Part shown: positions 2,178 through 60,636 of the stretch, piece by piece
How the letters are laid out: each line of letters starts with the position of its first letter
Position numbering within the stretch: position 1 is the stretch's first letter
Origin: an uncultured delta proteobacterium
GTDB lineage: Bacteria; Desulfobacterota; Desulfobacteria; Desulfobacterales; JAFDCJ01
Direction of reading: 5' to 3'
Assembly (NCBI GenBank): GCA_963769935.1
Contig: CAVYNY010000016.1
Location: 224,001-288,000, forward strand
DNA length: 64,000 nucleotides
Made by a program: the position numbers and the translations under genes
Notes under the pieces: model-generated
The model's database searches: none
Seen by the model: the letters and a program-made list of their open reading frames with translations, nothing else
Told to the model about the DNA's origin: nothing

Positions 2178-2297
2178 TGAGAAGGTAGGAAGGTGAGAAA
2201 TTGAGAGATGGCGAAGTTGTGATGTTCTGAAGATCAAATCCGATTCAACTCAATCAACCAAATCAACTTAATCAACTTAATCAACGATTCAACCAAG
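2178..2297 (+). repeat. Composite low-complexity repeat: purine-rich 8-mers (GAGAAGGT-like), AAATCCGATTCA, then 9-mers (CTYAATCAA-like)
   Basis: Read directly; the same composite recurs at 58797-59180. Confidence 0.8.
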
Positions 2298-2299
2298 CG

Positions 2300-3850
2300 A
2301 TGAAAAAGAAGCGGATTTTAATTGTCAACTGCGGTCTGGATGAATTTCGGCTAAATATTCGGCGGGTCAGAAGATTACCGTTTTCCATGGCGCCCGCCTT
2401 TCTGGCCGGTATTCTCTCGCCCGAGCGTTGTGATGTCAAAATTTATGACGAAATCTACAGCGGTCCGCTGGAAGATGAGAAGCGGCTGAGCTGGCCCGAC
2501 ATGCTGATTCTGACCGGGATGAATTCCACATTTGACCGTATGCTGCATTTAACAGCCTATGCGCGTACTAAAAATAATAAAGTGATCGTTGTCGCCGGCG
2601 GACCGATTATTCGTAACATTCCGCAGTTCGCCGGCCGCTTCTTTGACTACCCCTGCACCGGCGACATCGAAACGCTGCGGTTCGTTATTGAAGAGGCCTT
2701 TGGCAGGGAGTACGTTTCGAGCGCATTCCTTGAAAAAGGGTGGTCGATCCCACGCTATGATCTGGCCTATTTTATGAAAGACATGGCGTATGTAGAATCG
2801 AGTCGATACTGCAACTATCGCTGCAATTTTTGCGGCCTCAGCGCCGAAAACAGAAAATATCAGCCGTATGACCTGGCCTATCTGAAAGAACAGTTTGAGG
2901 CCTTGGGAAAACGCAAGCTGGTGCTTTTTTTGGACAATAATTTCGGCGGCCCCAATCGCCGCTTTTTAATTCAACGATTGAAACTGCTGAAAGAATTGCA
3001 CGAGAAAAAATCATTCTGGCGCTGGAGCGCCCTGGTTTCCAATGACTTCTTCTTTGAAGATGAAAATCTGGAACTCGCCCGTAATTCCGGCTGTGTGGGA
3101 CTTTTCAGCGGTGTCGAATCTTTTGACGAACAAGCTTTGCTCAATTTTAACAAGCATCAGAATATCCACATACCCCAGGTCGAGCTCATAAAAAAATGCC
3201 TTGAAGCCGGCATTAACTTTTTTTACGGCATGCTGGTCGACGTTTCGACCAGATCGCTGCACGATATAAAGAAGGAATTGGACTTTTTGCTCGACACGCC
3301 GCACATAACGCTGCCGGCCTTCGTCACCCTGGCTATTCCTCTGTTGGGAACTCCGTTTTTCTATGACTGTGTCAGGCAAAAACGATTTTTGCCGAATGTC
3401 AAGCTGCGGGATCTTGACGGCAAAACCCTGTCGTTGAAACCGATCGATCCCCTGCCGAAAGTTGTACGGTTCGTCAAAGATATCCAGTGCCTCGCCGGCT
3501 ATCGCACCCGCATACTTCGACATCAAAAAGAATTTTTTCGAATATACAGAAAACGGCTGCCGCCGGAGGCGATGTTCACCGAGATTTTCAACAGCCTGCT
3601 GCTCGCCGCACCGAATCTGGCCACGGCCCCCACCGCCATCGGCCGCGTGCTGATGAGCAGATTCAAGTACAAACGTACCTTTCTGAGTACAACCGAGGCT
3701 CTGGATCCGGCCTATACTCCGGCCTTTCGGGTTGACGCCCGCTACGCGTCTTACTTCCAACCAACCATGCTGACAGACAGCGAAGGCAACCTGGTTGAAG
3801 AACTGCACGCAGATCTATCCGAAAAGATGCCGGCCGGGTTGGCCAACTAG
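2300..3850 (+). CDS. Radical SAM protein with N-terminal cobalamin-binding-like domain
   Basis: CNYRCNFC (CX3CX2C), VVAGGP, FLDNNF and FSGVESF motifs. Confidence 0.85.
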   Translation: MKKKRILIVNCGLDEFRLNIRRVRRLPFSMAPAFLAGILSPERCDVKIYDEIYSGPLEDEKRLSWPDMLILTGMNSTFDRMLHLTAYARTKNNKVIVVAGGPIIRNIPQFAGRFFDYPCTGDIETLRFVIEEAFGREYVSSAFLEKGWSIPRYDLAYFMKDMAYVESSRYCNYRCNFCGLSAENRKYQPYDLAYLKEQFEALGKRKLVLFLDNNFGGPNRRFLIQRLKLLKELHEKKSFWRWSALVSNDFFFEDENLELARNSGCVGLFSGVESFDEQALLNFNKHQNIHIPQVELIKKCLEAGINFFYGMLVDVSTRSLHDIKKELDFLLDTPHITLPAFVTLAIPLLGTPFFYDCVRQKRFLPNVKLRDLDGKTLSLKPIDPLPKVVRFVKDIQCLAGYRTRILRHQKEFFRIYRKRLPPEAMFTEIFNSLLLAAPNLATAPTAIGRVLMSRFKYKRTFLSTTEALDPAYTPAFRVDARYASYFQPTMLTDSEGNLVEELHADLSEKMPAGLAN

Positions 3851-3865
3851 GATTGCTTCGTTGAA

Positions 3866-3892
3866 TCTGATTTTTCCTCTCAGAAAATCAGA
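3866..3892. terminator. Hairpin between convergent radical SAM genes (possible bidirectional terminator)
   Basis: TCTGATTTT...AAAATCAGA inverted repeat. Confidence 0.4.
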
Positions 3893-3904
3893 CCCAAAAA
3901 ATAA

Positions 3905-3935
3905 CTCTCTGCGTCCTTTGCGCCTCTGCGGTGAA
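3905..3935 (+). repeat. Single arm of a 9-mer tandem element (CTCTCTGCG TCCTTTGCG CCTCTGCGG TGAA)
   Basis: Three imperfect 9-mers in the intergenic space. Confidence 0.55.
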
Positions 3936-3960
3936 ATTCAGCTATTTTTTCTTCAGTGAA

Positions 3961-5583
3961 TTATAATTTCCGGTTTGCTGTGTCTGGTGATATCAGCTGG
4001 CGATAGTTCATCAACAGATCGGGCTGCAGGGCTTCATTCAAATTGCCCTGTTGATCGGTGAGCATGGTCGGTTTGAAATAGTCCTCATATTTTGATGTGA
4101 GCCGAAATGCCGGCTGATAAACCGAATCCAGCCGTTCGGTTGATCCGACATAAGTCCGGGTGTGCCTACCATAGCCAGGGCCGAAAATACGGCCGAGATC
4201 CGTGCCCAGCGTCGCCAATTTCGGTGTGCAGAGATGAAAAGCACAGTATTGCGCAAAGCCCATCCGCTCCCAGGAGAGGACCGTTCGGTACCTTTTATAG
4301 AAGTCTTTCATATGCCGCACGATTCTTCTCTTATACCCCCTGAGCGTTTGGAAATCTTGCACGAATTGAACAGCCCGCGGCATCGAGTCCAGGGGTTTTA
4401 AGGTTATCGTCGTGCCGTCCAGATCCCTCAATTTGACATTCGGTAAAAATCGTTCTTGTTCGAGGCAATCATAAAAGTAAGGTGTTTTCAAAAGCGGTAT
4501 GGCCAGCGTAACAAAGGCCGGCAGCGTGATGTCCGGATTGCCGACAATGAAATCCAGCTCTGCTTTAAGCTCCGGGATTCGGCGGGTGGTTAGATCCAGG
4601 ACAATGCCATATAAGAAGGTAATGCCGGCGTCCAGACACTTGCGAATCATTTGCACCTGCGGAAGGGTGGTGTTTTGATATTTACGAAAGTGCAAAAGGG
4701 ATTTGCGGTCAAAGGATTCGACGCCGCAAAAAAGGGCCAGGCATCCGCAATTATAAGCCATCTTCAGGTTTTCGTCGTTGAAAAAAAAATCACTGGTAAC
4801 CTCCGCCCCCCAGCGGTGAAAATAGCCGGCTTCGTGTAATTCCTGAAGCAATTCAAAACGGTCCCGCAAAACCTGCCGATCCGGCGATGCAAAATTGTTG
4901 TCGAGAAAATGCACCATCCGCCGTCTGCCGAGGGCCATAAACTGCGCGCGCAGGTATTCTATTTCGTATGGTTGATATTTGCAATCCTCGGCGGTCAGCG
5001 AGCAGTAACTGCACCGGAAGTAACAGTTTCTGCTGGACTCAATATAAGACATTATGGTCATCCAGGGGACCAGATCAAAGCGGGGAACTACCCATCCGGT
5101 TTCTAAATATGATTCGGAAACATAAGACGGCCCGAATACCTCTTTAATGACGTCTGCCAGTTGCTCGATATCTCCCGTACAACAATAGTCAAAGAAATTT
5201 TTCGAGTATTCAGGCAGGGCCCGGATAGCCGATCCGCCCGCCACGACCACTGCTTTGCGGTTTTTCGATTTAACATAGGCGGTCAGATGGAGCATTCTGT
5301 CAAAGGAAGTATTGACGCCTGTCAGCACCAGCATGTCAGGGGCGGACAAAAGACGCTCATTCTCCAGGGGACCGCCGTAAAGCTCGCTGTACAGCGTGAT
5401 GTTGCAGAGGCTGGCAGAAAATAATCCCGCTAAAAAGGCCGGCGTCATGGATTGTGGGATTTTGGTTTTGCGCCGAATCGGGATGCGGAGGTCATCCATA
5501 TAGCAATTGACGATCAGGATGCGTTTTTGAACGCGTACGATAGGTTTTCGCCGGCAGTCGTTCGTGCGTTTGCGGTCTGGCAT
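3961..5583 (-). CDS. Radical SAM protein, paralog of 2300-3850
   Basis: CYFRCSYC; long near-identical stretches shared with the convergent neighbour (KRILIVNC, FDRMLHLTAY, ITLPAFVTLAIPLL, RFLPNVKLRDLDG). Start uncertain. Confidence 0.85.
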   Translation of the reverse strand: MPDRKRTNDCRRKPIVRVQKRILIVNCYMDDLRIPIRRKTKIPQSMTPAFLAGLFSASLCNITLYSELYGGPLENERLLSAPDMLVLTGVNTSFDRMLHLTAYVKSKNRKAVVVAGGSAIRALPEYSKNFFDYCCTGDIEQLADVIKEVFGPSYVSESYLETGWVVPRFDLVPWMTIMSYIESSRNCYFRCSYCSLTAEDCKYQPYEIEYLRAQFMALGRRRMVHFLDNNFASPDRQVLRDRFELLQELHEAGYFHRWGAEVTSDFFFNDENLKMAYNCGCLALFCGVESFDRKSLLHFRKYQNTTLPQVQMIRKCLDAGITFLYGIVLDLTTRRIPELKAELDFIVGNPDITLPAFVTLAIPLLKTPYFYDCLEQERFLPNVKLRDLDGTTITLKPLDSMPRAVQFVQDFQTLRGYKRRIVRHMKDFYKRYRTVLSWERMGFAQYCAFHLCTPKLATLGTDLGRIFGPGYGRHTRTYVGSTERLDSVYQPAFRLTSKYEDYFKPTMLTDQQGNLNEALQPDLLMNYRQLISPDTANRKL

Positions 5584-5606
5584 CAGCAATTTTCCAGCAT
5601 CTAGCT

Positions 5607-8233: not shown

Positions 8234-8287
8234 TTTATAATACCCTCAACGGTTTGCTATCTGTTTCGATAAAAAGCATGTTAGAAA

Positions 8288-14772: not shown

Positions 14773-14889
14773 TTTTCGTTACATCCTGGGATTGATAGCG
14801 GCTGGAAGACTGGGAAGCATGGAGACTGCAAGCTGCTTTAAAGTCTTCTTGGTAGATTCTTTGCATTTTATGCAATCCGCCTTGGGCGG

Positions 14890-15011
14890 ATCACCACGAA
14901 AACACGAAATTTTGAAAGCACGAAATTTATCTAATCATCTTTTCGTGTTTCCGTCCTTTCGTGCTTTTGTGATTAATTTGTCCTTTTTAGTTCCGGCTTG
15001 TCCGGGTTAGG
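14890..15011 (+). repeat. Palindromic CACGAAA/TTTCGTG element plus TTCCGGCTTGTCCGGGTTAGG tail (copy 1)
   Basis: Inverted arms; near-identical copy at 17611-17768. Confidence 0.85.
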
Positions 15012-15057
15012 AACTTCAACTTCAAGGCTTCCCGGCCTTCCAGCCACTGATCCCAAT

Positions 15058-16248: not shown

Positions 16249-16290
16249 AACCCGAAACGCGCAACCCGTAACGCGCAACACGCAACACGA
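16249..16290 (+). repeat. 7-mer tandem arm (AACVCGH)x6 abutting the thiolase RBS
   Basis: aacccga aacgcgc aacccgt aacgcgc aacacgc aacacga; same family as 48420-48456. Confidence 0.75.
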
Positions 16291-17555: not shown

Positions 17556-17610
17556 TCAGTCGCGTAGAATCTTAATTGCTATTTCTTTGCAGTTTATGAA
17601 AAAATTTTTT

Positions 17611-17768
17611 ATCACGAAAACACGAAATATAGAAAGCACGAAAATTATCTTTTATTACTTTCGTGTTTTCGCCTGCCCCGTTAAACTTTTTTTTCTCCGT
17701 TTAACCGGGGTCCTTTCGTGCTTTCGTGATTAATTTGTTCTTTCTGGCCTTGGCTTGTCCAGGTTAGG
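17611..17768 (+). repeat. Palindromic CACGAAA element (copy 2) with a nested 39-bp hairpin insertion at 17672-17710
   Basis: Aligns with 14890-15011 apart from the inserted CCTGCCCCGTTAAAC...GTTTAACCGGGG and scattered substitutions. Confidence 0.85.
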
Positions 17769-18524: not shown

Positions 18525-18577
18525 CTTTCGACGGGGAGTTCGTTAATAATATTTTTATGAATTTTCCCAAAAAACCC

Positions 18578-18756
18578 AAAAAACAAGCACCAAATTCCAA
18601 ATAAATTCGAAATTCCAATTACCGAAACGAGTAACGATATACTTTGAGCGTTTTTGATCAGCTTAGGTTATATATTCAATATCAAGTCTTTGTTTTGAAT
18701 TTGCTTTTTTGGTCATTGGGTATTGTTTGTAATTTGAGATTTGTTATTTGTTTTTT
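18578..18756. repeat. Imperfect palindromic element with 7-mer arms (CAAATTC / GAATTTG-like)
   Basis: C/A-rich left arm and complementary G/T-rich right arm. Confidence 0.65.
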
Positions 18757-18816
18757 CCAATCACGCGGAAATTTGGCAAAAAATACCTTTAGCAAAGACC
18801 AGTCTGAGGTTATGCC

Positions 18817-20545: not shown

Positions 20546-20698
20546 TGGACACGGATTTGCACGGATCGACACAGATAAATTTATAAACATGTGAATGAAG
20601 GGAATTTGAATTTATAAATCAGCATTTCGCTTTGCTTTTCTCATCGGTTTCTTAATTTATTTTTTATTATCCGTCTAATCCGCGTTTATCCGTGTCCA
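20546..20698. repeat. Palindromic element with 10-mer arms and TGGACACGGAT/ATCCGTGTCCA termini
   Basis: Three CACRGAT units on the left, three ATCCGY units on the right, perfect 11-bp terminal inverted repeat. Confidence 0.8.
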
Positions 20699-22587: not shown

Positions 22588-22744
22588 TAGACAGAGGGCT
22601 GAAGACATCAAGAACGACGGTCAAACGACGGACGATCATAAATTGATTGGAGCAATCAAGCAGGTGTTTCCTTGCGAATGATGACATGGGATGGCAATAG
22701 AAAATACATCAGGCGCCAGGCGGGCGTTTCGGAAATTTAGAATA

Positions 22745-23233
22745 TTACTCCACAGTATCAAGTAGACTATTTTTTCGATGATTGTATTCTTTAATCAATT
22801 TTACAGAAAAGTTTACCACTTTTTCATTGGGGCCGACAAATTTAATGCCGGAATGATACATACCAGCAGCAGATTTTTTACAGTACACTAATTCACCATT
22901 AATTTCGATAAAATTATTTTCCACATCGATAGCCATCAATGAAATCAATCCTGATTCGATCGGATGAGGCGTTTCGAGTAATATTCCGCCAATGCTGATA
23001 TCTATGGCTTTGCTCAAACCTTGAGAGATCAACTTCCCCTTTTCATCAACGGAGACATGGGAAATCAGATTGCTTGTTTTAACCCTTGGAAATTTTCTTC
23101 GATTAACCACATCCAGAGGATAAACCCTGAAAACAAGTCTGCATTTGGAGCACCTTACAATTGATCCGGTGGGCTTTACAAGACTGTCTTTTAAACTAAA
23201 TAACGATTGACATGATTCGCAGAGTATTTTCAT
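22745..23233 (-). CDS. MJ0042-type zinc-ribbon plus PilZ-domain protein
   Basis: CESC..CSKC; RKFPR; DISIGG; start probably at MKILC. Confidence 0.85.
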   Translation of the reverse strand: MKILCESCQSLFSLKDSLVKPTGSIVRCSKCRLVFRVYPLDVVNRRKFPRVKTSNLISHVSVDEKGKLISQGLSKAIDISIGGILLETPHPIESGLISLMAIDVENNFIEINGELVYCKKSAAGMYHSGIKFVGPNEKVVNFSVKLIKEYNHRKNSLLDTVE

Positions 23234-29474: not shown

Positions 29475-32400
29475 ATGAATACCCAAAAATTCGCGCTAAC
29501 TTGGTTGCTGACGATATGTTTTCTGACCGCCGTGTTTTTGCCGGCAGTCCAGGCCGAGTCACCGGATTATGGTGATAGCTGCTACTCGGCAAAAGTAATC
29601 GCTCTGAACACGACAACCAATGGATACATCGAAAAGGGCAATTGCGGATGGGTCTATGGTCATTGGCAATGTTCACCTAGCCCCGATAAAGACTACTTTA
29701 AGATTGTGGTCCCGGAATCAGGCTCCCTGACCATTTACACGACTGACTCAAATTACAACCCCGCCATGGACACGGAGGGCTACCTGTATGATGACAGTGA
29801 CTGCAATTACGGTGACATCATCGCCCACAATGACGATGCCGACAGTCCCAGTAATACAAATTTTCGGATTGTGCAGGCGGTAAACACCGGGACCTATTGG
29901 ATCCGCGTGCAAGGCGGACATACGGACATTCAGGGGTATTATCGACTGCACGTGGAGTTTGTCGCCCAGAACGCGCACAGCATCACGGCCAGCGCCGGGG
30001 CCGGCGGCAGCATTTCCCCCGCAGGGGATGTCGGTGCGGCCGAGGGGGGCCTCCTGAGCTTTGCGATCACACCGGATGCCTGCCATGAAGTGGCCGATGT
30101 GCTCGTCGACGGGGTTTCCGTGGGAGCCCAGACTTCCTATACGTTCACCAATATCACGGGTGACCACACTATAGAGGCCAGTTTTGTCGCAGCCGCGAAT
30201 TTTACGATCAGCGTCATTTCCGACGGCAACGGCCTCATATCCGACGGCAACGGTCTCATTACGCATACCGAGGGTGCTGTGACATTGAGCTGCGGTGAGG
30301 ATCAGGCAATTGAAATTGCAGCGCTACCCTCTTATAAAATCCTCGACGTTAAGGTTGACGGTGTGTCTGTGGTCGATCCTCTGACGGCGGGGGCAATGAC
30401 CACCTACACTTTCACCAACGTAACTGCCGATCATACGGTCACGGCCAGCTTCACCGGCATAAACGATTACATTATCGCCACCGTTGCCGGCGCCGACGGC
30501 AACATTGTGCCTTCGGGTCCGGTGGGCGTTGCATCCGGCGAAAGCCGGACGTTTAGCATCGCGGCGGACCCCGGATTTGATGTCAAAGAAGTCTGGGTGG
30601 ACGGCACCTCGGTGGGGATGGTGGACACCTATGCGTTTAACGATGTCCATGCCAATCATGAGCTGCGGGCGGAATTTAGTCCCATGGCGGGCCGGCCGGA
30701 CCTGGATACCTGTATTGACATATCCGATATACCGCTGGACACCCGTGTCCGGGCCGCGCCGGCCAATATCATGTTCGTGCTGGACGACTCCGGCAGCATG
30801 GACTGGGAGTTTATGACCGGCGAGAGCGAAGGTCAATTTGAAGGCGAGCGTTATATCTTCAACAACCCCGGCGATAATCTGTATTCCGACAGTTACATCC
30901 TGGACAGCAGTCAACGCAAAAAATGGAAATCCCAATGGTTTCGCTACAACATGCTGTACTATAACCCGCGGACGGAATATACACCCTGGCCGAACATGAG
31001 CGACGCGGACACGGCCCATCCGTGGTCCCACCCGCAGGTTACCACGGCGGGCTCGCCCAGCCTTAATCTGGCGGCCGAGTTTACCCAGATTTCGGCCAAT
31101 GGCGAGACGATTGTCGTCGACGACGGGGATGCCGAATTTTCGATCATCTCCGGCGACTGGAATACCAGCGGCTTTCATGCCGACGCGTATAACACCAACT
31201 TCACGGAATCTACGCTGGCTGACGAAGATAGGATCGCGCGCTGGGCGCCGAACCTTGCGGCGGGCAATTATGACGTCTATGCGAGCTGGGTGGCGGATGC
31301 CGCCTATTATGACAAGATGCAATATTTTGTGGTTCCCGACGGCATTGCTCCGGGAACCAAAATCGAGGTCGATCAGACCGCTGACGGCGGAACCTTCGGC
31401 GATAAGACCACAGCCAATTATCTGGGCAACTTTACCTTTACCCCCGCCGGATATGTTGAGATCTACATTAAACATGATCATGCCAAAGACTTCCAGGCAA
31501 GTGCCGATGCGGTCAAGTTTGTGCCCACTGACAGTGTCACGGCCAGCATCAAAAACGCTCATTATTACACCTGGTACGACGCCGATGAGGACGGTGAGCT
31601 GGACAGCGGCGAAACCGTCTACCTCGTGAATTTTGTGGATACCACCGGCGACGGCGCGCTCAACGCCCGGCAGTGGTATGCATTTGCCGACGACGGCGAT
31701 AATATCGTGGAAGCGGGTGAATTAACCGAAATTTCTGAATCCAGCGTGCCGGAGATCGTCATACCCTACAAGACGGCGGCGGATGATTTGCAGAACTTCG
31801 CCAACTGGTTTTCTTACTACCGGCGGCGGGAGCTGTCAGCCACGGCCGCCATGGCCACCTTAATCACCTACGCCCAGGGCATGCAAATCGGCATATACAG
31901 TATCAACGGAAATCTGAAGGTACCGGTGCACAAGATTAAAGTGGACGGGGTGGATGAAACCGCCGCCCTGTTGAACACACTGTATAGCCTTAAAGTCTCA
32001 GCCGACGGTACCCCATTGCGCCAGGGACTGCAAAATGTCGGGAAATATTACCACAAAAATGATAATTCCAATGGGGGTATAGGCACCTCGGCGGATCCCG
32101 ACGACGATTCGCCGATTGCCGACGCCGCCGACGGCGGCGAATGCCAGCAGTGTTTTGCCATCGTGATGACCGACGGATTTTGGAACGGCAGCAGCCCCGG
32201 GGTCGGCAACACCGATGCCGATGACGCCAACTCCGATTTTGATGGTCCGCCTTATGCCGATACGTATTCGGATACCCTGGCCGATGTTGCCATGAAGTAT
32301 TATGAGACTGACCTGGATACGAACCTGAGCGATTTTGTTCCGACCAACAGCCGCGATTTGGCCAAACATCAGCACATGGTAACTTACACGATCGGGTTCG

Positions 32401-34661
32401 GTGTTGTCGGGTCGTTGACCCTGGCGCCGGATTACCTGGACACCGGCGTTTATCCCACCTGGACCAACCCGGCTGACGGTAATGACGCGCACAAAATCGA
32501 CGACTTGATGCATGCCGCCGTCAACGGCCGGGGCCGGTATCTGAAGGCGCAAAATTCACTCGAACTGATCAACGACTTGTACCTCATCTTAAAAGATATC
32601 GCATTCTACAGCGGATCGGCATCCTCGGTTTCGGTCAACGGGGATGAGTTGTACACCCGTGTTAATGAAAACGTGATGCTGTTTCAGTCCAAGTATTACA
32701 GCGAGGGCTGGCATGGGGATGTTCTGGCCTACCGGGTGGACAACTCGACCGGCGAGCTCATCCAGCCGGCCCTGTGGTCGGCGGCCAAAAGCATGAGCTT
32801 GCAGTCGTTGGCCGGCCGCAAAATAGCAACCTATGACGGATCTTCCGCGGGCATCCCTTTCAGGTTTGACAACCTGACGGTTTATCAAAAAGCTATGCTG
32901 GATGCCGCCTGGGAAACCAATGATACGAACGCCAGAAACATCCTTGATTATGTGCGGGGCGAGCCTTCCCTCGAATTGGACAACGGCGGCACTTTCAGAA
33001 ACCGCACCTGGAAAATTGCAGATCAGGAACACCCCTACAACGGTTCGATTATCGCCTCCTCCAGACTGGGCGATATCGTACACGCCTCACCGGTTTACAA
33101 GAACGGCGTGCTGTATTCGGGCGCCAATGACGGCATGCTTCATGCCTTCGATGCGAACAGCGGTGAGGAAATTTTTGCCTATGTGCCGAATCTGGTGTTC
33201 GGCAACCTCCCGAACCTGACCGATCCGACGATCGGCCATCGATTTTATGTGGACCTGACACCCACCATCGCCGATGTGGATCTGTCCGGTATAACCACCA
33301 TGCTGGTCGGCGGTCTGGGCAAAGGCGGCCGCGGCTACTATGCGCTGAATTTAACCGATGTTGCCACTACCGGCGCTATTTACCCGATCGACGAGAATGA
33401 TCTTGCCGGCATGGTGATGTGGGAATTCCCCAATTGGTCCACATCCAACACAGTGGTGGCCGATCTCGGCTATTCGTACAGCAAGGCCGAGATTGTGAAG
33501 ACGTATGATGCCAATTATCCCTACATCCTGATATTCGGCAATGGTTATAACAGCGTCAACGGAAGAGCCGTCCTTTTTATGCTCAACCCGGCTACCGGCG
33601 AACTCATCAAGCGCATTGATACGGGCGTTGGCACCTGCAACGGGCTTTCGACACCGGTCGCAGTGGATGTGAATTACGATGATAAGGTGGATTATGTTTA
33701 TGCCGGCGATTTGAAAGGTAATTTGTGGAAATTTGACCTGACAAGCGACGATTCGACGAACTGGGATGTGGCCTATTACGAAAGCGGAACCAAAATACCG
33801 CTTTTTACAGCCGCCGGTCAACCGATAACCACCCGGCCGGATGTGATGTTTCACTGTGAGAAAGACGGCTATCTGGTGCTTTTCGGCACAGGAAAATATC
33901 TGGAAGATTCCGACCTTTCCGATACCAGCGGCCAGGCGGTATACGGCATCTGGGATTATGGAGACGATGCCGACAAAGGCGAATATGTAGGCACCATCAA
34001 CAGTGGAACCTTTACGCCCTCTCCCCTGCTGCCGTCGGGCACGGTCTCTCTTTTGGCGCAAAATGTCGTCAATGAGCAAACCGCCAATGATCTGGACCTT
34101 AGAACATTGTCGAACAGTCAAGCAGACTGGACCGCCTCTGCTTTGAATCCGATGGACGGGATCGCCTGCGGCGACTATGGCGGCACGGAAGACTGTGACC
34201 CGAACGGTACGGGCGAACATCCGGATCCTGTCAGAAATGTCGGCTGGTATTTTGATCTGCCGGATGCCGGCGAACGGGTGGTCAGTGATGTGATCGCCAG
34301 GGAGGGAAATCTTATCGTATTATCCTATACGCCGGGAGGTTCAATGTGCGCCACGGGCGGCCATACCTGGGTGATGGCAATGGATGCCTGCTCCGGCGGC
34401 AGGCTTTCGGAGGCCAACTTTGATGTCAACGGCGACGGCGGGATCGATGACCAGGATTTGGTCGATATCGGCACCTCTGACGAGATCATGGCGCCACCGA
34501 CCGGAACAAAATTCTCCGGAAGGCTTCTGCCGCCTGCCATTTTAATAATGAGCAAGAATACGGAGAAACTTTATATGAGCTCATCCATGGGCAGCATCGA
34601 AATTTTGGGGCAGAAGGCGGCAAGACTGGGTGTTTATTACTGGAACATATTTTCGCAATAG
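29475..34661 (+). CDS. pilY1: PilY1/PilC pilus-tip adhesin
   Basis: Signal peptide; vWA MIDAS DDSGS; SSRLGDIVHASP; GANDGMLHAF; Ca-loop DVNYDDKVDYVYAGD; GWYFDL. Confidence 0.92.
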   Translation: MNTQKFALTWLLTICFLTAVFLPAVQAESPDYGDSCYSAKVIALNTTTNGYIEKGNCGWVYGHWQCSPSPDKDYFKIVVPESGSLTIYTTDSNYNPAMDTEGYLYDDSDCNYGDIIAHNDDADSPSNTNFRIVQAVNTGTYWIRVQGGHTDIQGYYRLHVEFVAQNAHSITASAGAGGSISPAGDVGAAEGGLLSFAITPDACHEVADVLVDGVSVGAQTSYTFTNITGDHTIEASFVAAANFTISVISDGNGLISDGNGLITHTEGAVTLSCGEDQAIEIAALPSYKILDVKVDGVSVVDPLTAGAMTTYTFTNVTADHTVTASFTGINDYIIATVAGADGNIVPSGPVGVASGESRTFSIAADPGFDVKEVWVDGTSVGMVDTYAFNDVHANHELRAEFSPMAGRPDLDTCIDISDIPLDTRVRAAPANIMFVLDDSGSMDWEFMTGESEGQFEGERYIFNNPGDNLYSDSYILDSSQRKKWKSQWFRYNMLYYNPRTEYTPWPNMSDADTAHPWSHPQVTTAGSPSLNLAAEFTQISANGETIVVDDGDAEFSIISGDWNTSGFHADAYNTNFTESTLADEDRIARWAPNLAAGNYDVYASWVADAAYYDKMQYFVVPDGIAPGTKIEVDQTADGGTFGDKTTANYLGNFTFTPAGYVEIYIKHDHAKDFQASADAVKFVPTDSVTASIKNAHYYTWYDADEDGELDSGETVYLVNFVDTTGDGALNARQWYAFADDGDNIVEAGELTEISESSVPEIVIPYKTAADDLQNFANWFSYYRRRELSATAAMATLITYAQGMQIGIYSINGNLKVPVHKIKVDGVDETAALLNTLYSLKVSADGTPLRQGLQNVGKYYHKNDNSNGGIGTSADPDDDSPIADAADGGECQQCFAIVMTDGFWNGSSPGVGNTDADDANSDFDGPPYADTYSDTLADVAMKYYETDLDTNLSDFVPTNSRDLAKHQHMVTYTIGFGVVGSLTLAPDYLDTGVYPTWTNPADGNDAHKIDDLMHAAVNGRGRYLKAQNSLELINDLYLILKDIAFYSGSASSVSVNGDELYTRVNENVMLFQSKYYSEGWHGDVLAYRVDNSTGELIQPALWSAAKSMSLQSLAGRKIATYDGSSAGIPFRFDNLTVYQKAMLDAAWETNDTNARNILDYVRGEPSLELDNGGTFRNRTWKIADQEHPYNGSIIASSRLGDIVHASPVYKNGVLYSGANDGMLHAFDANSGEEIFAYVPNLVFGNLPNLTDPTIGHRFYVDLTPTIADVDLSGITTMLVGGLGKGGRGYYALNLTDVATTGAIYPIDENDLAGMVMWEFPNWSTSNTVVADLGYSYSKAEIVKTYDANYPYILIFGNGYNSVNGRAVLFMLNPATGELIKRIDTGVGTCNGLSTPVAVDVNYDDKVDYVYAGDLKGNLWKFDLTSDDSTNWDVAYYESGTKIPLFTAAGQPITTRPDVMFHCEKDGYLVLFGTGKYLEDSDLSDTSGQAVYGIWDYGDDADKGEYVGTINSGTFTPSPLLPSGTVSLLAQNVVNEQTANDLDLRTLSNSQADWTASALNPMDGIACGDYGGTEDCDPNGTGEHPDPVRNVGWYFDLPDAGERVVSDVIAREGNLIVLSYTPGGSMCATGGHTWVMAMDACSGGRLSEANFDVNGDGGIDDQDLVDIGTSDEIMAPPTGTKFSGRLLPPAILIMSKNTEKLYMSSSMGSIEILGQKAARLGVYYWNIFSQ

Positions 34662-39547: not shown

Positions 39548-39672
39548 CCTAACCCGGATTATCCGGAAATGACTATTGAAAATTGAATATTTTCGGAAGC
39601 ATTCCTTAAATTTTTAATATTCAATCGAAACTATTTAATTTAAATGACATCAATCCTTAAATATTCAATTTA
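39548..39672 (-). repeat. ATTGAAT-arm palindromic element plus TTCCGGATAATCCGGGTTAGG tail
   Basis: Arms resemble 51035-51160; tail resembles 14991-15011. Confidence 0.7.
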
Positions 39673-41661: not shown

Positions 41662-41707
41662 TGTTTGTATAATCAACAATAAAATGTTTGTATAACCAAC
41701 AATAAAA
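41662..41707. promoter_or_regulatory. 23-bp tandem direct repeat upstream of tmcD (candidate operator)
   Basis: TGTTTGTATAAYCAACAATAAAA x2. Confidence 0.55.
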
Positions 41708-48195: not shown

Positions 48196-48456
48196 CGAGG
48201 TGCGGGGTAAGCGGTCGCGGGGTTCGAAGTGCGCATATCGTGGTGCAGGGTACGGGTTTCAGGAGGGAATTTAGTAAGGAGAGGGTGTGCAAAGTTACAG
48301 GGACCTGGATATATACCAGCTATCTTATGAATTAGGGAGAAAAATTAACAAGTCTATCCAATACGTCGAAAAAGAATAGAAATAAGCGGGGTAGCGAGTA
48401 GCATAGCCATCGAAATGCTAAACACCGAAACGCGAAACACGCAACTCGCAACGCGA
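48196..48456. mobile_element. Palindromic element with 7-mer arms enclosing a four-helix-bundle gene remnant
   Basis: G-rich 7-mer left arm (48196-48263), complementary AACNCGH right arm (48420-48456), internal remnant ORF. Confidence 0.65.
48287..48385 (+). pseudogene. Internally deleted four-helix-bundle (23S rRNA IVP-family-like) gene
   Basis: TAAGGAG RBS, then [34 protein letters not shown]- and C-terminal family-like motifs joined directly. Confidence 0.7.
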
Positions 48457-48471
48457 AGGAGATTTTTTGAT

Positions 48472-48903
48472 ATGAACGATTGGGAACCTAAAATTGTGGC
48501 TTTTTTGTGCAACTGGTGCAGCTATGGGGCTGCCGATCTTGCCGGTGTCGGCCGAATGGAGTATCCGCCCAATATCCGGGTTATCCGGATACCGTGCACC
48601 GGCCGGATGAGCCCCAAATTCTTTCTGGCCGCCCTGCGGGAAGGTGCAGACGGCGTCTGGGTATCCGGGTGACATCCCGGTGAATGCCATTACCTGGAAG
48701 GTAATTACTACGCTCGCCGCAAATTTGCCCTGTTTAAAAATCTGATGGAACATATGGGAGTCGAACCCGACCGCCTTCAGTTTTCCTGGGTCTCTTCGGC
48801 CGAATCCACCAAGTTTGTCGCCGTCGTCAAAGATGTTACCGACGCGATTAAAGCCCTCGGACCCAATCAAACTTTTTCTAAAATAGAGGCTAAGGTTGCA
48901 TAA
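48472..48903 (+). CDS. flxD: Selenocysteine-containing MvhD/FlxD (143 aa; Sec67 at TGA 48670-48672)
   Basis: [25 protein letters not shown]...WVSSAE; SECIS-like hairpin at 48689-48705. Confidence 0.92.
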
Positions 48904-49852: not shown

Positions 49853-49854
49853 TT

Positions 49855-49944
49855 AGCGTTTCGTTTTTTGTGTTTAGTGCTTGGCAGAGCACTATGACGG
49901 CAATTTCTGCAGAAACAAAACACCAAACACGAAATACCAAACAC
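49855..49944. repeat. Palindromic element with 7-mer arms (GTGTTTN / NAAACAC)
   Basis: Complementary tandem arms between flxC and flxB. Confidence 0.7.
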
Positions 49945-51031: not shown

Positions 51032-51034
51032 AGG

Positions 51035-54254: not shown

Positions 54255-54267
54255 CATGCCCGGTCCG

Positions 54268-57200: not shown

Positions 57201-57339
57201 CCGCTTCGCGAATCGTAATGAGGGGATCTTCCAGTTTCGGAAGCTTCAAAAATGCAAAGATGCCGCCGACAATTACCAGCAACAGGGTCATGACGACGGT
57301 TCGCGAATTATTCAGCGCAAATGCGGTGATCCCTTTCAC
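54268..57339 (-). CDS. RND efflux permease
   Basis: 1023 aa; GMFVDNAIVV, NNGIVMID and SRFRPI motifs. Confidence 0.95.
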   Translation of the reverse strand: MKGITAFALNNSRTVVMTLLLVIVGGIFAFLKLPKLEDPLITIREAVVAAKYPGMPVEQVERLITRPIEEEIRSMGEIDKIKDSTSKVGESLIHVTIKDEVPSEQLPATWKLLRNRMNDVKSELPEGTIGPMVNDTFGDTSVATIALWSDGFSMGEMHETARQIRERLNLLKGIQKVDLTGVQDERIYLEVSNAKIAQLGIDPADIGKSLQQQNILLPGGTIDVNEVEIIVETQGRFRSLEEIEDVPIPISGTQATIPLRDIAAIRRGYVEPIHNPAYYNGHQAIVISVFILRGVDAVEFGERLQKEVKEIEQSLPWGYVLQFATYQPELIKKSVNGMVVNVIESVVIVLVVVMLLLGLRTGLIVGSFIPLVMLFGVLMMYALGIDLERMSLATMIIALGMFVDNAIVVSDDIKVNLESGMARKDAVLKSGSSLSIPLLTSTLTTVFAFGPILLQIGTTGDYTSSLGSVMIILLMASWFFSMFSSTSMCYWFLKVKPAAGGAKKQAGDPYQGKFYRLYRRVLELSLRFRFLVLAVTGGIFAVALYAATFIPQAFFPSGDRNQYLIYLDLPAGTRIEETDRTVRELSAWLQDKKENPEITGTIAYVGNGGPRFFLSLAPVDPDPFVGFLIVNTETNKQVPELVSRTSQYVLNNFPNVRGRVKSMWLGGSETGLMQIRLSGPETDVLLEQAEQLMAALRKIPGTIDIKQDWNNRVFTAMADVDQARARRAGVTSEGVANTLDFFIDGVTTTNYHQGNVQIPIVGRGVKAERDSPDSLRTLGIRSSSGDSVPLNQVADVYTIGELNRIVRYNQERTITVSAKNQVLKASEIFAGLKPTLAGMEFPKNHHWEVGGELEDSARAQKNLAKWLLPCFGGIVFLLVWQFNSIRRAAIIILTMPLVVVGSVVGLLVMRADFGFMVILGLLALAGSIVNNGIVMIDKIEENRRDGQTPYDAVINSAVSRFRPILLSVSTTMLGFLPLIINHDPLFYGMASIMFFGLGIGSMFTLNYVPALYSILFRVKLPEA

Positions 57340-57383
57340 TTTGAGTCCCTTCTACTCCTGTGATTTGGAATATTATGAAACCT

Positions 57384-57526
57384 TTCAGAGGTTCCGGGTT
57401 CAGGACAAAAAAGACATTATTCCAGGATTGAGGCAAATAAGCATGCCAGATGCAGTCCAACGGATGAAAGTTGAACCTTGAACCACTTAACCCTTTAACC
57501 CCTGAACCTTTGAACCTTGAACGCCT
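57384..57526. repeat. Palindromic element with GGTTCA / TGAACCYT-like arms
   Basis: Short left arm and about seven 7-8-mer units in the right arm, inside the RND operon. Confidence 0.7.
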
Positions 57527-57529
57527 ACA

Positions 57530-58618
57530 TCACTGTTTCATCAGTTTGACTTTCATCCCATCGGCTAAAAAACTCACCCCGGCCACCGCAATAACATCCC
57601 CGTCCGCAAGTCCCTCGGACACGATTGCTTCTTTATTCTCCATACCACGGGAGCGGACCCGAGTTTTTTTGACCGTCGATGTCTGGGGGTCATAGACAAA
57701 AGCATACCCCTGGTTCTCCTCCGTAGCCGGCAGAATTGCCTGGAGCGGGACCAGGAAACCGGCCTCCCGGTTGGCATCTTTTATAAAAAGATTTGCTTCA
57801 GCGGTCATGCCGGGTTTTACATCTTTATTCGGATCAATCAGCACCACCTTGACCGGAAAGGCGCCGGCCTTAACAGCGGCGGAACCGATAAAGGAAATAC
57901 GGCCTTTGGCGGAATCACCCGGCAGCGTGGGAAATGAGATGGTTGCCGGACCATCGATGTGTATCCGGTCGATGGTGGACTCCGGAACGGCCAACTGTAC
58001 CTCCATGGTCCCCTTGGCATTAATTTCGAACACTTTCTGTCCGACTTTCACCTCCTCGTGCGGCTGCACCGAGCGCCAGGCGATGGCGCCGTCGTAGGGG
58101 GAGAGCAGCTTCGTTTTGCGCAGATTGCGATTGGCAAGATCCAGTCTTGCTATCTGAACATTTACCGCGCTCCCGGCGGCCTTATAATTATATTCGGCGG
58201 CATCCAGATCACTTTTGGCCCCCGCACCCTGTTCGAAAACCCGCTTCTGGCGATCGAACTCCGCCTTTGTATTGGTAACGTTGGCCTTGATCTTTACAAG
58301 TTCAGCCTGGACTGCATCCACCTCCAACTGGTAGGGCTCCGGATCAAGCGCAGCGAGCACCTGCCCTTTTGTCACGTGGTCACCGATGTCGACTTCCACA
58401 GATTCCACCTGCCCGGCGACCTGAAAACTGAGCCCGGAGGAATCGACCGCGGCGACAATTCCGGAAAATTTGCGGATCTGCTCGGTAGCCTGGTCTTTGA
58501 CGGTAATCGTCTTGATGGGTCTTATGACTTCAATAATTTCAGTTTTTTCTTTGCATGCCGCCAGGGCAAGCGATATGCAGATCAGCCCGAGCATCTGCTT
58601 TAATATCTGTTTGGTCAT
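57530..58618 (-). CDS. RND periplasmic adaptor (MFP) lipoprotein
   Basis: Lipobox LAAC; LSFQVAG, LLSPYDG and KPGMTA motifs. Confidence 0.93.
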   Translation of the reverse strand: MTKQILKQMLGLICISLALAACKEKTEIIEVIRPIKTITVKDQATEQIRKFSGIVAAVDSSGLSFQVAGQVESVEVDIGDHVTKGQVLAALDPEPYQLEVDAVQAELVKIKANVTNTKAEFDRQKRVFEQGAGAKSDLDAAEYNYKAAGSAVNVQIARLDLANRNLRKTKLLSPYDGAIAWRSVQPHEEVKVGQKVFEINAKGTMEVQLAVPESTIDRIHIDGPATISFPTLPGDSAKGRISFIGSAAVKAGAFPVKVVLIDPNKDVKPGMTAEANLFIKDANREAGFLVPLQAILPATEENQGYAFVYDPQTSTVKKTRVRSRGMENKEAIVSEGLADGDVIAVAGVSFLADGMKVKLMKQ

Positions 58619-58796
58619 ATCAAATCTCCCACGAAAAATATTGTAAGGGTCTTTTGACAATTATTTACGGGGCATAGCACCATAAGTTGCTTAAAATCAC
58701 AAATCTCATTTGAATACAACCTCTACTCTATTCCCCCCTTCTGGTCAATCATCATTTGAATCAGCCCACACGCGCAGTAAAGGCTGAATTAAGGCG

Positions 58797-59180
58797 AGAT
58801 GAGAAGGTGAGAAGGTGGGAGGGTAAGAGGGTGAGAAGCTAAGAAAATCAGAAAAGCAGAAGGTCAGACCGTCGGAAGGTCAGAAGGTGGGAGGGTGGGA
58901 AGGTGAGAAGTTGAGAAGATCAGAAAATCAGAAAACAGAAATCAGAAGAGCAGAAAGTCAGACGGTCGGAAGGTGAGAGGGTGAGAAGGTGAGAAGCTGG
59001 GAAGTTGGGAAATCCGATTCACCTCAATCAACCTAATCAACTCAATCAACCCAATAAACTCAATCAACCCAACAAACTCAATAAACTCAATAAACTCAAT
59101 AAACTCAATAAACACAACAAACACAACAAACTTCGGCTCTCCGCAATCTGCAATCATCAATCGAAAAACTCGCAATCCGT
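58797..59180 (+). repeat. Long composite repeat: 8-mer/7-mer purine tract, AAATCCGATTCA, about twelve 9-mers (CTCAATMAA), then GCAATC-type 7-mers
   Basis: Read directly; same junction as 2178-2297. Confidence 0.9.
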
Positions 59181-59182
59181 CA

Positions 59183-60091
59183 TCATCCCCTCCTTCGAAA
59201 ATAAATCACCGAATCCGTGGAATAGATGGCCAGGGCCGTCCAGATCATGATGAATGTCCACACCTGGACCTTTGAAAAAGGCTCATGGAAGTAAAATACT
59301 GCCAGCAGGAACATGCCGGTGGGGGCAATATACTGCAGCAGACCGAGCGTCGAAAGATTTATCCGCCTGGCGCCGGCCGTGAAAAAAGTCAGCGGAACAG
59401 CGGTAAGCACCGAGGTCCCCAGGAGAAGTAAATCAATACGGACACTGCCGCGCAGAAAAGATCCACTCCCTTTGGCGCCGAGATAGATGAGATAAGCTGC
59501 TGCCGGGGTTGTCAGCAGCATGGTTTCAATACTCAGACCCACCAGCGGCCCCACCGGCGCAACTTTGCGAATCAGCCCGTATAACCCGAAGGATGAGGCC
59601 AGCGCCAGCGCTATCCAGGGAAACGATCGGTAAGAAATGGTAAGGTAGACAACCCCTACTCCCGCTAACAAAACCGCCAGAACTTGGATCGGACGCAGGC
59701 GCTCTCTGAGAAACAAGACCCCGAATACAACGTTTATCAGCGGATTGATATAATAGCCGAGACTGCCTTGCAGCACGAAATCATTGTTAATGGCCCAGAT
59801 ATACAACCACCAGTTGAGTGCCAGTATAACGGCTGATGCAGACAGCATCAGGAGGATTCTAAGATCCTTCAACGCCCGGAATAATTCATCCCAGCGTCTT
59901 CCTATAAAGATTAAGACCAGCAGAAATATAAATGCCCAGACCACCCGGTGCAAAATGATTTCCAGCGGGGGAACTGAATCGAGGGCTTTCCAGTATATCG
60001 GACCCAGGCTCCAGATAAGAAACGCCGACCCCGCATACATCACACCGGATACTGATTCTGTTCTTAATCTTTTTGAATCATGTGTTTCCAT
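59183..60091 (-). CDS. rarD: RarD EamA-family transporter
   Basis: HRVVW, SLGYYINPL, YGLIRK and GLLQYIAPT motifs. Confidence 0.92.
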   Translation of the reverse strand: METHDSKRLRTESVSGVMYAGSAFLIWSLGPIYWKALDSVPPLEIILHRVVWAFIFLLVLIFIGRRWDELFRALKDLRILLMLSASAVILALNWWLYIWAINNDFVLQGSLGYYINPLINVVFGVLFLRERLRPIQVLAVLLAGVGVVYLTISYRSFPWIALALASSFGLYGLIRKVAPVGPLVGLSIETMLLTTPAAAYLIYLGAKGSGSFLRGSVRIDLLLLGTSVLTAVPLTFFTAGARRINLSTLGLLQYIAPTGMFLLAVFYFHEPFSKVQVWTFIMIWTALAIYSTDSVIYFRRRG

Positions 60092-60374
60092 TCAGTAAAA
60101 TGCCTAATCCCGCTTACAGCGGGACTAAGATGCACTAAAATTAAGGAGGTTAATCGTTTTAGATAAGCGAAGGAGATCCCTATTTCAGGATACTTCAGAA
60201 CTAATTCAGCTGGTTTCAGTATAACCGGAAACGAATAATTCCTTGTTTTCGCAGCCGGCACCATACTCCATCCCCGGAGGGGAGTCAAATCTCTTTGACT
60301 TTGAAAGATGATTCCATTAAAGCAAGGCTTCAGGTGTCTGGTGTCAGGTTTCAGCCCAATTGAAAAGAAAAAGA

Positions 60375-60562
60375 GGAATGGATTCTTATTTTAAAGAAAA
60401 TAATTGGACAGGATCAACAGGATCGTTAAGATAATACGGCCTTCGGCCGAAAGGCCCCTCGCCGCAGGCGAAAAAATTCCTGTTAATCCTGCGTGCCAGG
60501 GCGAAGCTTCTGCGAAGACTGGTTAATCCTGTCTAAATAAAAATAAAAATCGAATCCATTCC
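60375..60562. repeat. MITE-like element with 11-bp terminal inverted repeats, 9-mer arms and a nested 31-bp insertion at 60492-60522
   Basis: GGAATGGATTC/GAATCCATTCC termini; ACAGGAT and ATCCTGT arms. Confidence 0.8.
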
Positions 60563-60576
60563 ACTTACCCTCATTG

Positions 60577-60636
60577 AAGTTTCACACGAGCGCCGCCGCT
60601 GGCCGCAAGCGTCCAGTCTGATCGTAGAAGAAACTT
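60577..60636. repeat. Short element bounded by AAGTTTC/GAAACTT
   Basis: 7-bp inverted termini, GC-rich core, AGTTTCA repeated just downstream. Confidence 0.4.

Follow-up and report, generated by a model that had tools for sequence, protein, structure and literature searches.

The 64,000 nucleotides analysed here (the window), from the genome of an uncultured bacterium of the Desulfobacterales (G000), raise the question of why so many of their intergenic spacers carry elements of one design: an array of imperfect short tandem repeats, a spacer and a complementary second array. This array design had been described in an earlier note on this DNA and is seen at all 13 printed sites. In sequence, the elements correspond to the arms of small cassettes. 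Each cassette contains a gene with no evident promoter, encoding either a four-helix-bundle protein (4HB; PF05635, S23p/Avd-like fold) or a GxxExxY protein, inside inverted arrays of a 7-10-nt word. We think it probable that these small proteins read their own words and help to copy arm-bounded DNA. The elements of the window are (z, RNA folding z-score):

48196..48455, plus strand: 4HB cassette with an internal deletion, between hdrA and flxD, from alignment to the full cassette L076
51034..51158, unstranded: gene-less two-armed element of the 7-nt family c6 (4HB type); z -4.7
39570..39671, unstranded: gene-less element of the 51035 family in the tmcC/tmcB spacer; z -2.1
49853..49944, unstranded: gene-less element with 7-nt units, between flxC and flxB; z -2.3
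14842..15011, unstranded: gene-less GxxExxY-type element with 8-nt arms at 14895-14975; z -5.2
17566..17768, unstranded: element of the 14890 family; z -8.9
18570..18760, unstranded: gene-less 7-nt element of 4HB cluster c1, from printed arrays and word scan
20546..20698, unstranded: gene-less 10-nt element of GxxExxY type; z -3.7
57343..57531, unstranded: element with 7/8-nt units and arms at 57382-57522, between the RND adaptor and permease genes (4HB cluster c32); z -1.6
60368..60592, unstranded: 9-nt GxxExxY-type element with conserved interior, 11 aligned copies; z -2.9
16249..16289, unstranded: isolated closing arm belonging to the 48196 family, no hairpin; z +0.4
3905..3936, unstranded: lone closing arm of 9-nt GxxExxY type, 13 other loci
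2178..2296, unstranded: chimeric element without hairpin, four near-full copies; z +1.4
58800..59132, unstranded: longer copy of the 2178 chimeric family, from arm words and dispersed copies

One window element is a deletion remnant of a 4HB cassette: between an opening arm that starts at 48196 and a closing arm at 48411-48455 lie roughly the first 13 and the last 19 codons of a 4HB gene, joined at 48326/48327. In comparison to the L076 cassette at the same site, 267 nt are absent and the 3' segment is identical at 79 of 99 positions; complete 4HB cassettes occupy this hdrA/flxD site in four congeners (L076, L087, L088 and L092). The repeat noted previously at 48420 is present, not as a lone arm but as part of this element. 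The arm at 16249, directly preceding the ribosome-binding site of a thiolase gene, does stand alone, as had been proposed, and the lone arm at 3905 has the same word as L046 and L049 (by eye).

The gene-less elements belong mostly to dispersed families. The element at 51034 begins 2-3 nt past the flxB stop; its family (51035) has 139 other loci (E<1e-4), and the same arms bracket an intact 4HB gene (G000:C13:92531-92908) and its relatives. For the element at 18570 there are 68 other loci, with 4HB remnants of cluster c1 at G000:C2:15890 and C2:18339. The 14890 family has 62 other loci and 43 near-full copies, one of them 98% identical (G000:C11:63089); its arm words match cassette L065, and the ends of the element at 14842, which has non-periodic extensions on both sides, were taken from the family alignment. 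The member at 17566 has an extra small hairpin inside the closing arm and nine near-full copies (88-91%). By eye, the 20546 word also flanks the GxxExxY genes L063 and L075, and the 60368 word agrees with GxxExxY cassette L064; the 60368 element itself has neighbours on both sides, an opening arm with 7-nt units at 60330-60354 and, at 60575-60654, a non-periodic repeat unit of 80 nt. The elements 48196, 57384 and 20546 have dispersed copies in the range of 2-5 (E<1e-4). The word at 49853 resembles 4HB cassette cluster c20 by eye, and this element (49855) has no dispersed full copy in G000 at E<1e-4. Most units are thus shared among loci, and what was seen as shared architecture without shared sequence is better read as about 30 families tied to protein lineages.

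Two complementary arms are also not the rule everywhere: 2178 and 58800 pair arms of different families, and 2178, the one of the two that was folded, forms no hairpin. It joins an opening arm from one 4HB family, with 8-nt units, to a closing arm from another, with 9-nt units, and intact genes of both parent families are found at G000:C19:30660 and C16:12842. Seven of the eight two-armed window elements have folding z-scores between -2.1 and -8.9; the eighth (57384) has -1.6. As for operon context, tmcC/B/D, hdrA and the RND pair were correctly named, while the genes labelled flx match Asr/sulfhydrogenase-like subunits.

Across G000, with gene calls from our own crude caller, a genome-wide scan found tandem arrays with periods of 7-10 nt in 1,131 of 4,527 spacers; after dinucleotide shuffling, three repeats of the scan gave 16, 29 and 23. 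The arrays merge to 2,039, of which 151 lie within coding sequence by these crude calls, and their density is lower in divergent spacers (0.32 per kb) than elsewhere (0.91 and 0.85). Of the 1,888 intergenic arrays, 1,343 resemble cassette arms (397 with letter-permuted controls), and they fall into about 30 word families, each linked to its own small-protein lineage. The elements searched had no Rfam match at gathering thresholds. They are not CRISPR arrays, which have identical direct repeats of 23-47 nt, as the periods are 7-10 nt and there are no spacers; they are also not classical insertion sequences, as there is no target duplication. A common generating mechanism had been suspected, and the elements are indeed multicopy, variable among relatives and far more frequent than in shuffles. 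Pairing of TRF arrays yielded just 156 inverted pairs from 1,782 neighbouring pairs, so all pair-based counts cover a minority of elements. Among 127 arm pairs of G000, the order of opening and closing arm is the same as in gene-bearing cassettes in 114 of the 115 that are assignable, and the genes between paired arms are, by eye, 4HB or ordinary host genes. In 41 of 80 4HB-type pairs the element starts at most 12 nt from a stop codon; with short spacers left out, stop-codon targeting is modest (17/50 versus 9.6 expected). In the window, a loose arm-word scan was noisy (77 of 221 coding tiles matched at low threshold, one at a score of at least 15) and therefore only scores of at least 15 or matches by eye were used.

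We know of no catalytic activity of 4HB proteins; structurally, they resemble Xcc0516 (TM 0.90) and Avd of diversity-generating retroelements (DGRs; TM 0.71-0.76, PDB 4DWL, 8UB7/8UB8). GxxExxY proteins match TIGR04256 (E 1e-41) and PF13366 (PDDEXK_3, E 9e-41) and are PD-(D/E)XK nuclease-like, with predicted nuclease activity. The suspected link of the elements to these two types of gene is borne out, as arms of this kind bracket both. In G000, arms adjoin all seven 4HB genes, six of them on both sides, compared to 4.2% of all genes; among the 95 4HB genes of relatives, 88 have at least one arm and 63 have both, matching in inverted orientation in 51 and directly in three (cross-cassette control: 3.1%). 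GxxExxY cassettes are less clean, with four inverted and four direct among nine two-armed ones. For 80 of the 95 4HB cassettes a protein-coding upstream neighbour was identified, and in all 80 the 4HB gene follows it in orientation; GxxExxY genes are co-oriented in 19/23. Nine 4HB cassettes have a dN/dS of 0.069, indicating purifying selection, and in one pair the 4HB genes are almost identical in hosts that are 0.23 apart at synonymous sites. About 12 gene remnants were recognised in G000 by eye, after leaving out most of 84 loci that were arm sequence within two miscalled genes. The proposed linkage to RAYT or reverse transcriptase (RT) genes found no backing: within 300 nt, arms adjoin none of 11 Y1 (Y1_Tnp) matches in G000, they adjoin one of nine RT loci, and none of the seven 4HB matches is near any of the 10 RT matches.

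Hypermutation of 4HB genes was considered and rejected. Their dS seemed 2-9x that of flxD, but was mostly 1-3x in comparison to hdrA and flxC, and at other sites exceeded the host gene in just 23 of 35 pairs; the raised values are in good part due to low codon bias. Adenine-biased change was absent at fourfold sites.

The word follows the protein lineage. An arm cluster is common to 68 of 69 protein pairs with at least 80% identity and to 3 of 583 with 30-60%, based on a quick protein tree; across phyla, the word is shared in 13/13 pairs with at least 65% identity, in 7/19 intermediate ones and in 0/35 below 55%. Several clades sit at unrelated host sites with arms unchanged. Many 4HB clades sit at a single inherited site and the match between word and protein is therefore partly shared descent; co-transfer alone could account for much of the rest. 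The load of the 51035 family has a median of 29.5 first-look candidates per Mb in 12 genomes with the cognate gene and 11.1 in 11 genomes without (p 0.011, overstated because genomes are incomplete and related); exceptions are G018 (high load, no cognate gene) and G020 and G021 (low load with the gene). Gene density does not predict array load (rho 0.11; 20-60 kb samples of 18 order/genus genomes). Judged from these sequence comparisons, it is likely that each small protein recognises its own word.

Copies without a gene have spread: in 37 of 946 arm-bearing spacers, at least 80 nt recur elsewhere at 95% identity or more, indicating recent spread; gene-less copies are up to 98% identical, their orientation is unpolarised (15:19 and 16:13 in two families) and most contain no gene remnant. 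We infer that 4HB and GxxExxY proteins rather probably mobilise such copies in trans, and a route through DNA appears somewhat favoured over one through RNA. Each cassette protein would recognise its own 7-10-nt word and would help to place copies of arm-bounded DNA, whether or not they include the gene, in the non-coding sequence that follows stop codons. GxxExxY could act as the cutter for its own arms; for the 4HB type, some other nuclease or a host repair activity would cut. A 4HB gene would be kept only in sense orientation, because its expression would need read-through from the host gene. By analogy, the whole is best read as a REPIN/RAYT-like partnership with different proteins, probably acting on DNA.

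An unlikely alternative leads through RNA: the arms would base-pair within the host mRNA and RNase III would excise the element, as with 23S intervening sequences, after which an Avd-like 4HB ring would help an RT borrowed in trans to copy it to new sites. Scarcity in divergent spacers and the frequent start close behind stop codons agree with such a transcribed intermediate, but not the presence of gene-less copies in both orientations. The fold match is to DGR Avd, an RNA- and RT-binder according to passages of 10.1101/2023.10.23.563531, and G000 has 10 RT matches, but these genes are unlinked to arms, 4HB genes show no adenine-biased change, and GxxExxY is nuclease-like and equally without RT linkage. 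In vitro, RNase III cleaves a Coxiella intervening sequence (IVS) that carries an S23p gene, heptamer repeats and inverted repeats at its ends, as parts of PMC4990558 describe, and helices of at least 11 bp occur in 69 of 101 elements; however, G-U pairs are not in excess on the transcribed strand (110 G-U versus 92 A-C, p 0.23), and the chimeric family, unable to pair, multiplied anyway. RNA contigs (assembled, from one study, with possible DNA carry-over) cross the 49855 element gap-free, which also argues against excision. Splicing of elements from mRNA was rejected: some joints reflect the loss of 44 nt between direct repeats of 10 nt in the 39570 element, seen in contigs of all four RNA runs, and the others belong to ~92%-identical relatives, like the contig of run X4 (92% identical) that has 9 nt in place of the 57343 element. 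We read these joints as alleles.

It is improbable that the elements are domesticated regulators, with hairpins or protein-bound arms that tune mRNA stability or subunit ratios and the small proteins as regulators. They lie within core energy operons, the flxC/flxB spacer is occupied in 13 of 13 genus loci (by four arm families, as judged by eye), and 4HB genes are under purifying selection at long-held sites; but words are swapped between sister loci, hdrA/flxD spacers are at most 40 nt long in 5 of 80 cases, and element load differs more than 10-fold within the genus. The transcribed strand folds slightly better (-2.5 kcal/mol, 60:38; arm-free control -1.4, 69:51), but arms pair better with their own partner than with that of another copy in just 24 of 103 cases, in a comparison set picked by similarity and favouring other copies. 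With neither copy-specific covariation nor G-U pairs clearly above A-C, the earlier proposal of selection for long mRNA hairpins received little support.

In the preferred reading, a partnership of proteins and words acting on DNA, turnover at single sites is not fully accounted for. Sister loci only 1.5-2% apart have different families in one spacer, and in L162/L160 the family differs though both flanks are within 2-4%; simple insertion does not explain such family-for-family replacement. Some discordant pairs diverge more upstream (12%) than downstream (3-4%), a sign of recombination. Homing with co-conversion of flanks was considered, with one of 10 windows significant (p 0.002), and was set aside as weak. 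Young composite units with non-periodic ends sit within each other. Target duplication was absent in three families (30, 11 and 18 copies): the longest flanking direct repeats are 3.8, 3.7 and 3.7, versus 3.9, 3.2 and 3.8 across copies, with ends set by BLAST and possible erosion of old copies. That the elements are passive passengers, with rare horizontal entry of cassettes, arms spreading inside MITEs of ordinary transposases and through slippage, and alleles shuffled by homologous recombination, is the least likely explanation: nested young units, uneven flank divergence, the one co-converted window, the near-identical 4HB genes in diverged hosts and the Y1 transposases of G000 agree with it, but the missing target duplications, the lack of arms at Y1 genes, the L162/L160 difference and the fixed arm order and cross-phyla word conservation, both unexpected for passengers, do not.

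MITEs of DDE insertion sequences and Foldback-type elements with internally repeated arms are gene-less, have inverted ends, arise by internal deletion and are nested. The elements described here share all of this, but target duplication was not found in the three families and the partner genes, judged by eye in G000, do not appear to be DDE transposases. A close likeness to gene-bearing cassettes is in 23S IVS of Coxiella and Leptospira: parts of PMC4990558 describe a PF05635 family gene inside inverted arms, heptamer repeats 5' of the gene, gene deletions and signs of horizontal spread. The cassettes likewise have an S23p/PF05635 gene between complementary termini (in the window, only as the 48196 remnant), but in spacers of protein-coding operons rather than the 23S rRNA gene, with about 30 word families, more than 1,000 gene-less arrays and GxxExxY as second partner gene. 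The 23S IVS looks like one member of a wider word-armed class. REPINs, in the passages of PMC3337134 used here, are, like these elements, extragenic inverted doublets in several groups, each specifically associated with a low-copy short gene, with singlets as decay products. Here, however, the partner is of a different kind from the HUH/Y1 transposases, each arm repeats a short word in tandem instead of being a single palindrome, a lone arm is unfolded, and the partner gene is found within the arms, at varied sites and across phyla. Heptamer repeats of Xanthomonas and Nostoc (PMC4692102) and Beggiatoaceae (PMC4679880) consist, in the passages used, of arrays with a seven-base unit that lie between aligned genes, show strand polarity near stops and starts and are scarce between divergent genes, in Xanthomonas often as inverted pairs like the elements here; these papers differ in having one word per genome and, in their main-text passages, no named partner gene.

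More tentatively, the elements may represent a widespread bacterial and archaeal class of mobile DNA based on a code between proteins and words. Each of dozens of 4HB rings and GxxExxY nucleases would read its own 7-10-nt word, arm-bounded DNA would be moved without any known transposase, families would overwrite one another in the slot between stop codon and ribosome-binding site of operons, and 23S IVS, heptamer-repeat families and DGR Avd would be offshoots. Parts of PMC5524665, 10.1101/2021.01.26.428298 and PMC3936711 mention the partner genes merely in passing, and PMC3424549, where seen, lists PDDEXK_3 as of unknown function with multiple transfers. In mostly open texts only parts of the class are known (23S IVS, heptamer repeats), and as a whole it is likely undescribed. 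A quarter of G000 spacers is affected, including those of core energy operons. If true, this would explain the function of two very frequent gene types, 'four helix bundle' and GxxExxY, the spread of 23S IVS and the abundance of intergenic heptamer repeats in bacteria; and if the proteins do read words, they would form a natural collection of tiny binders with sequence specificity, and perhaps a compact insertion system with a preference for non-coding slots. Ready test pairs are the ~30 protein/word combinations, the full and deleted alleles at one site and the family-swapped sister loci.

4HB proteins share the four-helix-bundle fold with DGR Avd, but, in contrast to DGRs, they have no linked RT in G000 and their genes show no adenine-biased change at fourfold sites. 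Known homologues form a pentameric nucleic-acid-binding ring, according to parts of PMC10053308 and 10.1101/2023.10.23.563531. The average 4HB-type arm has ~4.4 units, a count biased by TRF thresholds; a relation to a five-subunit ring is only suggestive.

The arrays named in the earlier note lie in the window where it had placed them, and of eight two-armed window elements folded as RNA, seven give hairpins with z from -2.1 to -8.9. In the 8.0 Mb genome that contains the window, TRF array periods peak sharply at 7, 8 and 9, and 1,131 of 4,527 spacers carry an array, compared with 16-29 in three shuffles of the sequence; the array observation is real and not an ordinary one. With coding and spacer assigned from crude gene calls, an overlap with coding sequence was found for 151 of the 2,039 merged arrays. 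Co-directional (829/3,676) and convergent (145/625) spacers carry arrays about equally often and divergent ones (97/627) less often; per kb, arrays are rarer in divergent spacers (0.32) than in co-directional (0.91) or convergent ones (0.85).

Profile searches of this genome matched seven genes of TIGR02436 (four-helix bundle, 4HB; PF05635) and two of TIGR04256 (GxxExxY; PF13366, a PD-(D/E)XK family). All seven 4HB genes have an arm, i.e. a tandem array of a 7-10-nt word, within 300 nt (six on both sides), compared with 4.2% of 5,721 genes; the suggested co-occurrence with 4HB genes is thus supported, while the one with RAYT or RT genes is not (arms beside 0/11 Y1 transposases and 1/9 RT loci). 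The word is different for each of these 4HB genes, and the arms of the one on contig C13 are those of window elements 51035 and 39570. In 40 relatives, counting only the best-scoring among the matches listed (95 4HB and 26 GxxExxY genes), 88 of the 95 4HB genes have an arm; where both arms are present (63 genes), they match in inverted orientation in 51 and directly in 3 (control 3.1%). The nine both-armed GxxExxY genes are untidier (4 inverted, 4 direct). The 4HB gene is co-oriented with its upstream gene in 80/80 cases, excluding 15 of the 95 with no identified neighbour, and is under purifying selection (dN/dS 0.069, nine cassettes, that is, genes bracketed by arms). Its predicted structure (pLDDT 94) matches Xcc0516 (TM 0.90), BT_0352 and DGR Avd (TM 0.76). 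The only intact GxxExxY gene of this genome (L055, G000:C8:187500-189500) is surrounded not by a single arm pair but by entire hairpin units repeated directly in tandem, and its neighbouring ORFs appear foreign.

The word follows the protein lineage. Among 88 4HB proteins, again the best-scoring among the matches listed, an arm cluster is shared by 68/69 pairs with at least 80% identity, 34/58 pairs at 60-80%, 3/583 at 30-60% and 28/3,118 below 30%, and the 33 arm clusters require 36 changes on a quick 4HB tree, compared with 74 when shuffled. Part of this match is owed to inheritance at one site; clusters c4, c5, c32 and others are found again at unrelated host genes, as is the clade of the C13 4HB gene. 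Cross-phylum relatives of the hdrA/flxD 4HB protein, from hosts including Nitrospirota, Chloroflexota, Planctomycetota, Bacteroidota and archaea, have an arm in 70/80 cases; excluding three reference loci and ten armless loci, the word is that of the hdrA/flxD cassette in 13/13 at 65% identity or more, 7/19 at 55-65% and 0/35 below 55%. At loci L118 and L122, 4HB genes at one site have a synonymous distance of 0.00 in hosts 0.23 apart, a near-identity that suggests recent transfer. Locus L358 (G004:C113) has a 51035-family 4HB cassette behind a different hdrA-like gene.

The gene-less window elements very probably descend from 4HB and GxxExxY cassettes, and this reading is well supported. The window hdrA/flxD spacer (48196-48471) aligns with the complete same-site 4HB cassette of four congeners (a fifth has a cassette without closing arm); by comparison, 267 nt are missing from the window allele, which retains both arms and about the first 13 and the last 19 codons of the gene. 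By eye, and with arm-only matches removed beforehand, about 12 gene remnants (8 4HB, 4 GxxExxY) were counted in the genome. Opening and closing arms have cassette order in 114 of 115 assignable pairs (127 in total), and a match to cassette arms was obtained for 1,343 of the 1,888 intergenic arrays, compared with 397 in letter-permuted controls. The flxB/flxA spacer (L009) has a nested element with, by eye, an apparent GxxExxY start and end and the middle deleted.

Contents turn over at the same site. The flxC/B spacer has four families across 13 loci (by eye), and the 1-nt flxD/C junction has no element in 8/8 loci. The hdrA/flxD spacer, compared in 80 distinct loci out of 101, shows 10 states, with 30 changes on the host tree compared with 50 shuffled; the 4HB gene is nearly complete in 13 of these loci and partial in 4, and in 5 the spacer is at most 40 nt long. 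Sister pairs whose flxD/C sequences differ by just 1.5% and 2.0% have different families there, the swapped segment reaching from stop codon to ribosome-binding site. Co-conversion of the flanks is weak (1/10 windows), and some pairs show signs of recombination across the spacer.

Selection for long mRNA hairpins, as previously proposed, received little support: arms pair better with their own partner than with that of another copy in only 24/103 cases, in a test that leans towards other copies, and G-U mismatches are not in significant excess over A-C (110 vs 92, p 0.23). The folding advantage of the transcribed strand is slight (-2.5 kcal/mol vs -1.4 in controls), and an unbroken 20-bp helix is present in 5/101 elements. 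The chimeric family with mismatched arms (2178, 58800) cannot pair and nonetheless has several copies. Complementarity therefore looks like a family property, namely two oppositely oriented arrays of one word.

In the search of this genome, near-full copies of the gene-less elements numbered 43 for the 14890 core (one at 98% identity), 41 for 51035 (up to 78%) and none for 49855. Young composite units have sharp ends, are inserted within other elements and, in contrast to the gene-bearing cassettes, have interiors in either direction relative to transcription (15:19 and 16:13); no target duplication was seen in the three gene-less families inspected. 4HB-type pairs begin no more than 12 nt from a stop in 41/80 cases, but in roomy spacers only in 17/50 (9.6 expected), a small excess, so that selection accounts for much of the placement. 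The 57343-57531 element is absent from a ~92%-identical contig of an RNA run. Within the genus, the 12 genomes in which the cognate gene was found have 29.5 first-look 51035-family candidates per Mb and the 11 others have 11.1 (p 0.011), a trend that some genomes clearly break; gene density did not predict array load in 18 genomes, mostly of other families of the order (rho 0.11).

By analogy with RAYTs and REPINs, we consider it reasonably probable that a protein recognises the word and mobilises the element in trans at the DNA level. Each small protein would read its own word and would move arm-bounded DNA, as RAYTs do for REPINs; the logic would be common to both, the enzyme not (PMC3337134, available text). 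The number of units in 4HB-type arms is about 4.4 at any period, and the length of GxxExxY-type arms is about 30 bp: a 4HB ring may read one unit per subunit, and GxxExxY, a predicted nuclease, may have a fixed footprint. The main rival is an RNA route as in 23S intervening sequences (IVS), with a borrowed RT; according to the available account, the Coxiella IVS carries a gene of this family and likewise has inverted termini and heptamer repeats (PMC4990558), and we regard this route as doubtful. At least one defining feature was lacking for each of IVS, REPIN, DDE-MITE, DGR and CRISPR. Regulation and passive hitch-hiking fit less well than DNA-level mobilisation and are both unlikely, the latter slightly more so. 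Heptamers of Xanthomonas and Nostoc (PMC4692102) and of Beggiatoaceae (PMC4679880) are placed like the arrays here, and the available text of these papers mentions no partner gene. PF05635 is described, in the available parts of two others, as Avd-like (PMC10053308) and as a passenger of cas loci (PMC3936711). No description of this element class was found in the literature searched.

Several elements show further details. An 80-nt non-periodic unit (60575-60654; 28 aligned copies), with a small loop often containing other elements, resembles a landing pad where nested insertions arrive. The 44 nt at 39616-39659, between 10-nt direct repeats, are missing from contigs of 4/4 RNA runs, which may reflect a strain allele, an assembly difference or template switching alike. 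RNA contigs also contain the centre of element 57384 (57415-57447), flanked there by arms from a different family, thus interiors and arms are exchangeable. In a convergent spacer, the 14890 element lies within an outer 27-nt inverted pair (14797-14823 and 15022-15048), the left arm of which has no other copies at E<1e-4. Other features of the window are:

22640-22801 and 59906-60072, two additional imperfect inverted pairs outside the assigned families
29475-34661, a protein of 1,728 aa that partially matches PilC-type pilus adhesin
41662-41707, a 23-nt direct repeat directly upstream of tmcD that may be a regulator site
48670-48672, an in-frame TGA at codon 67 of flxD/mvhD, likely selenocysteine; the frame continues to 48903
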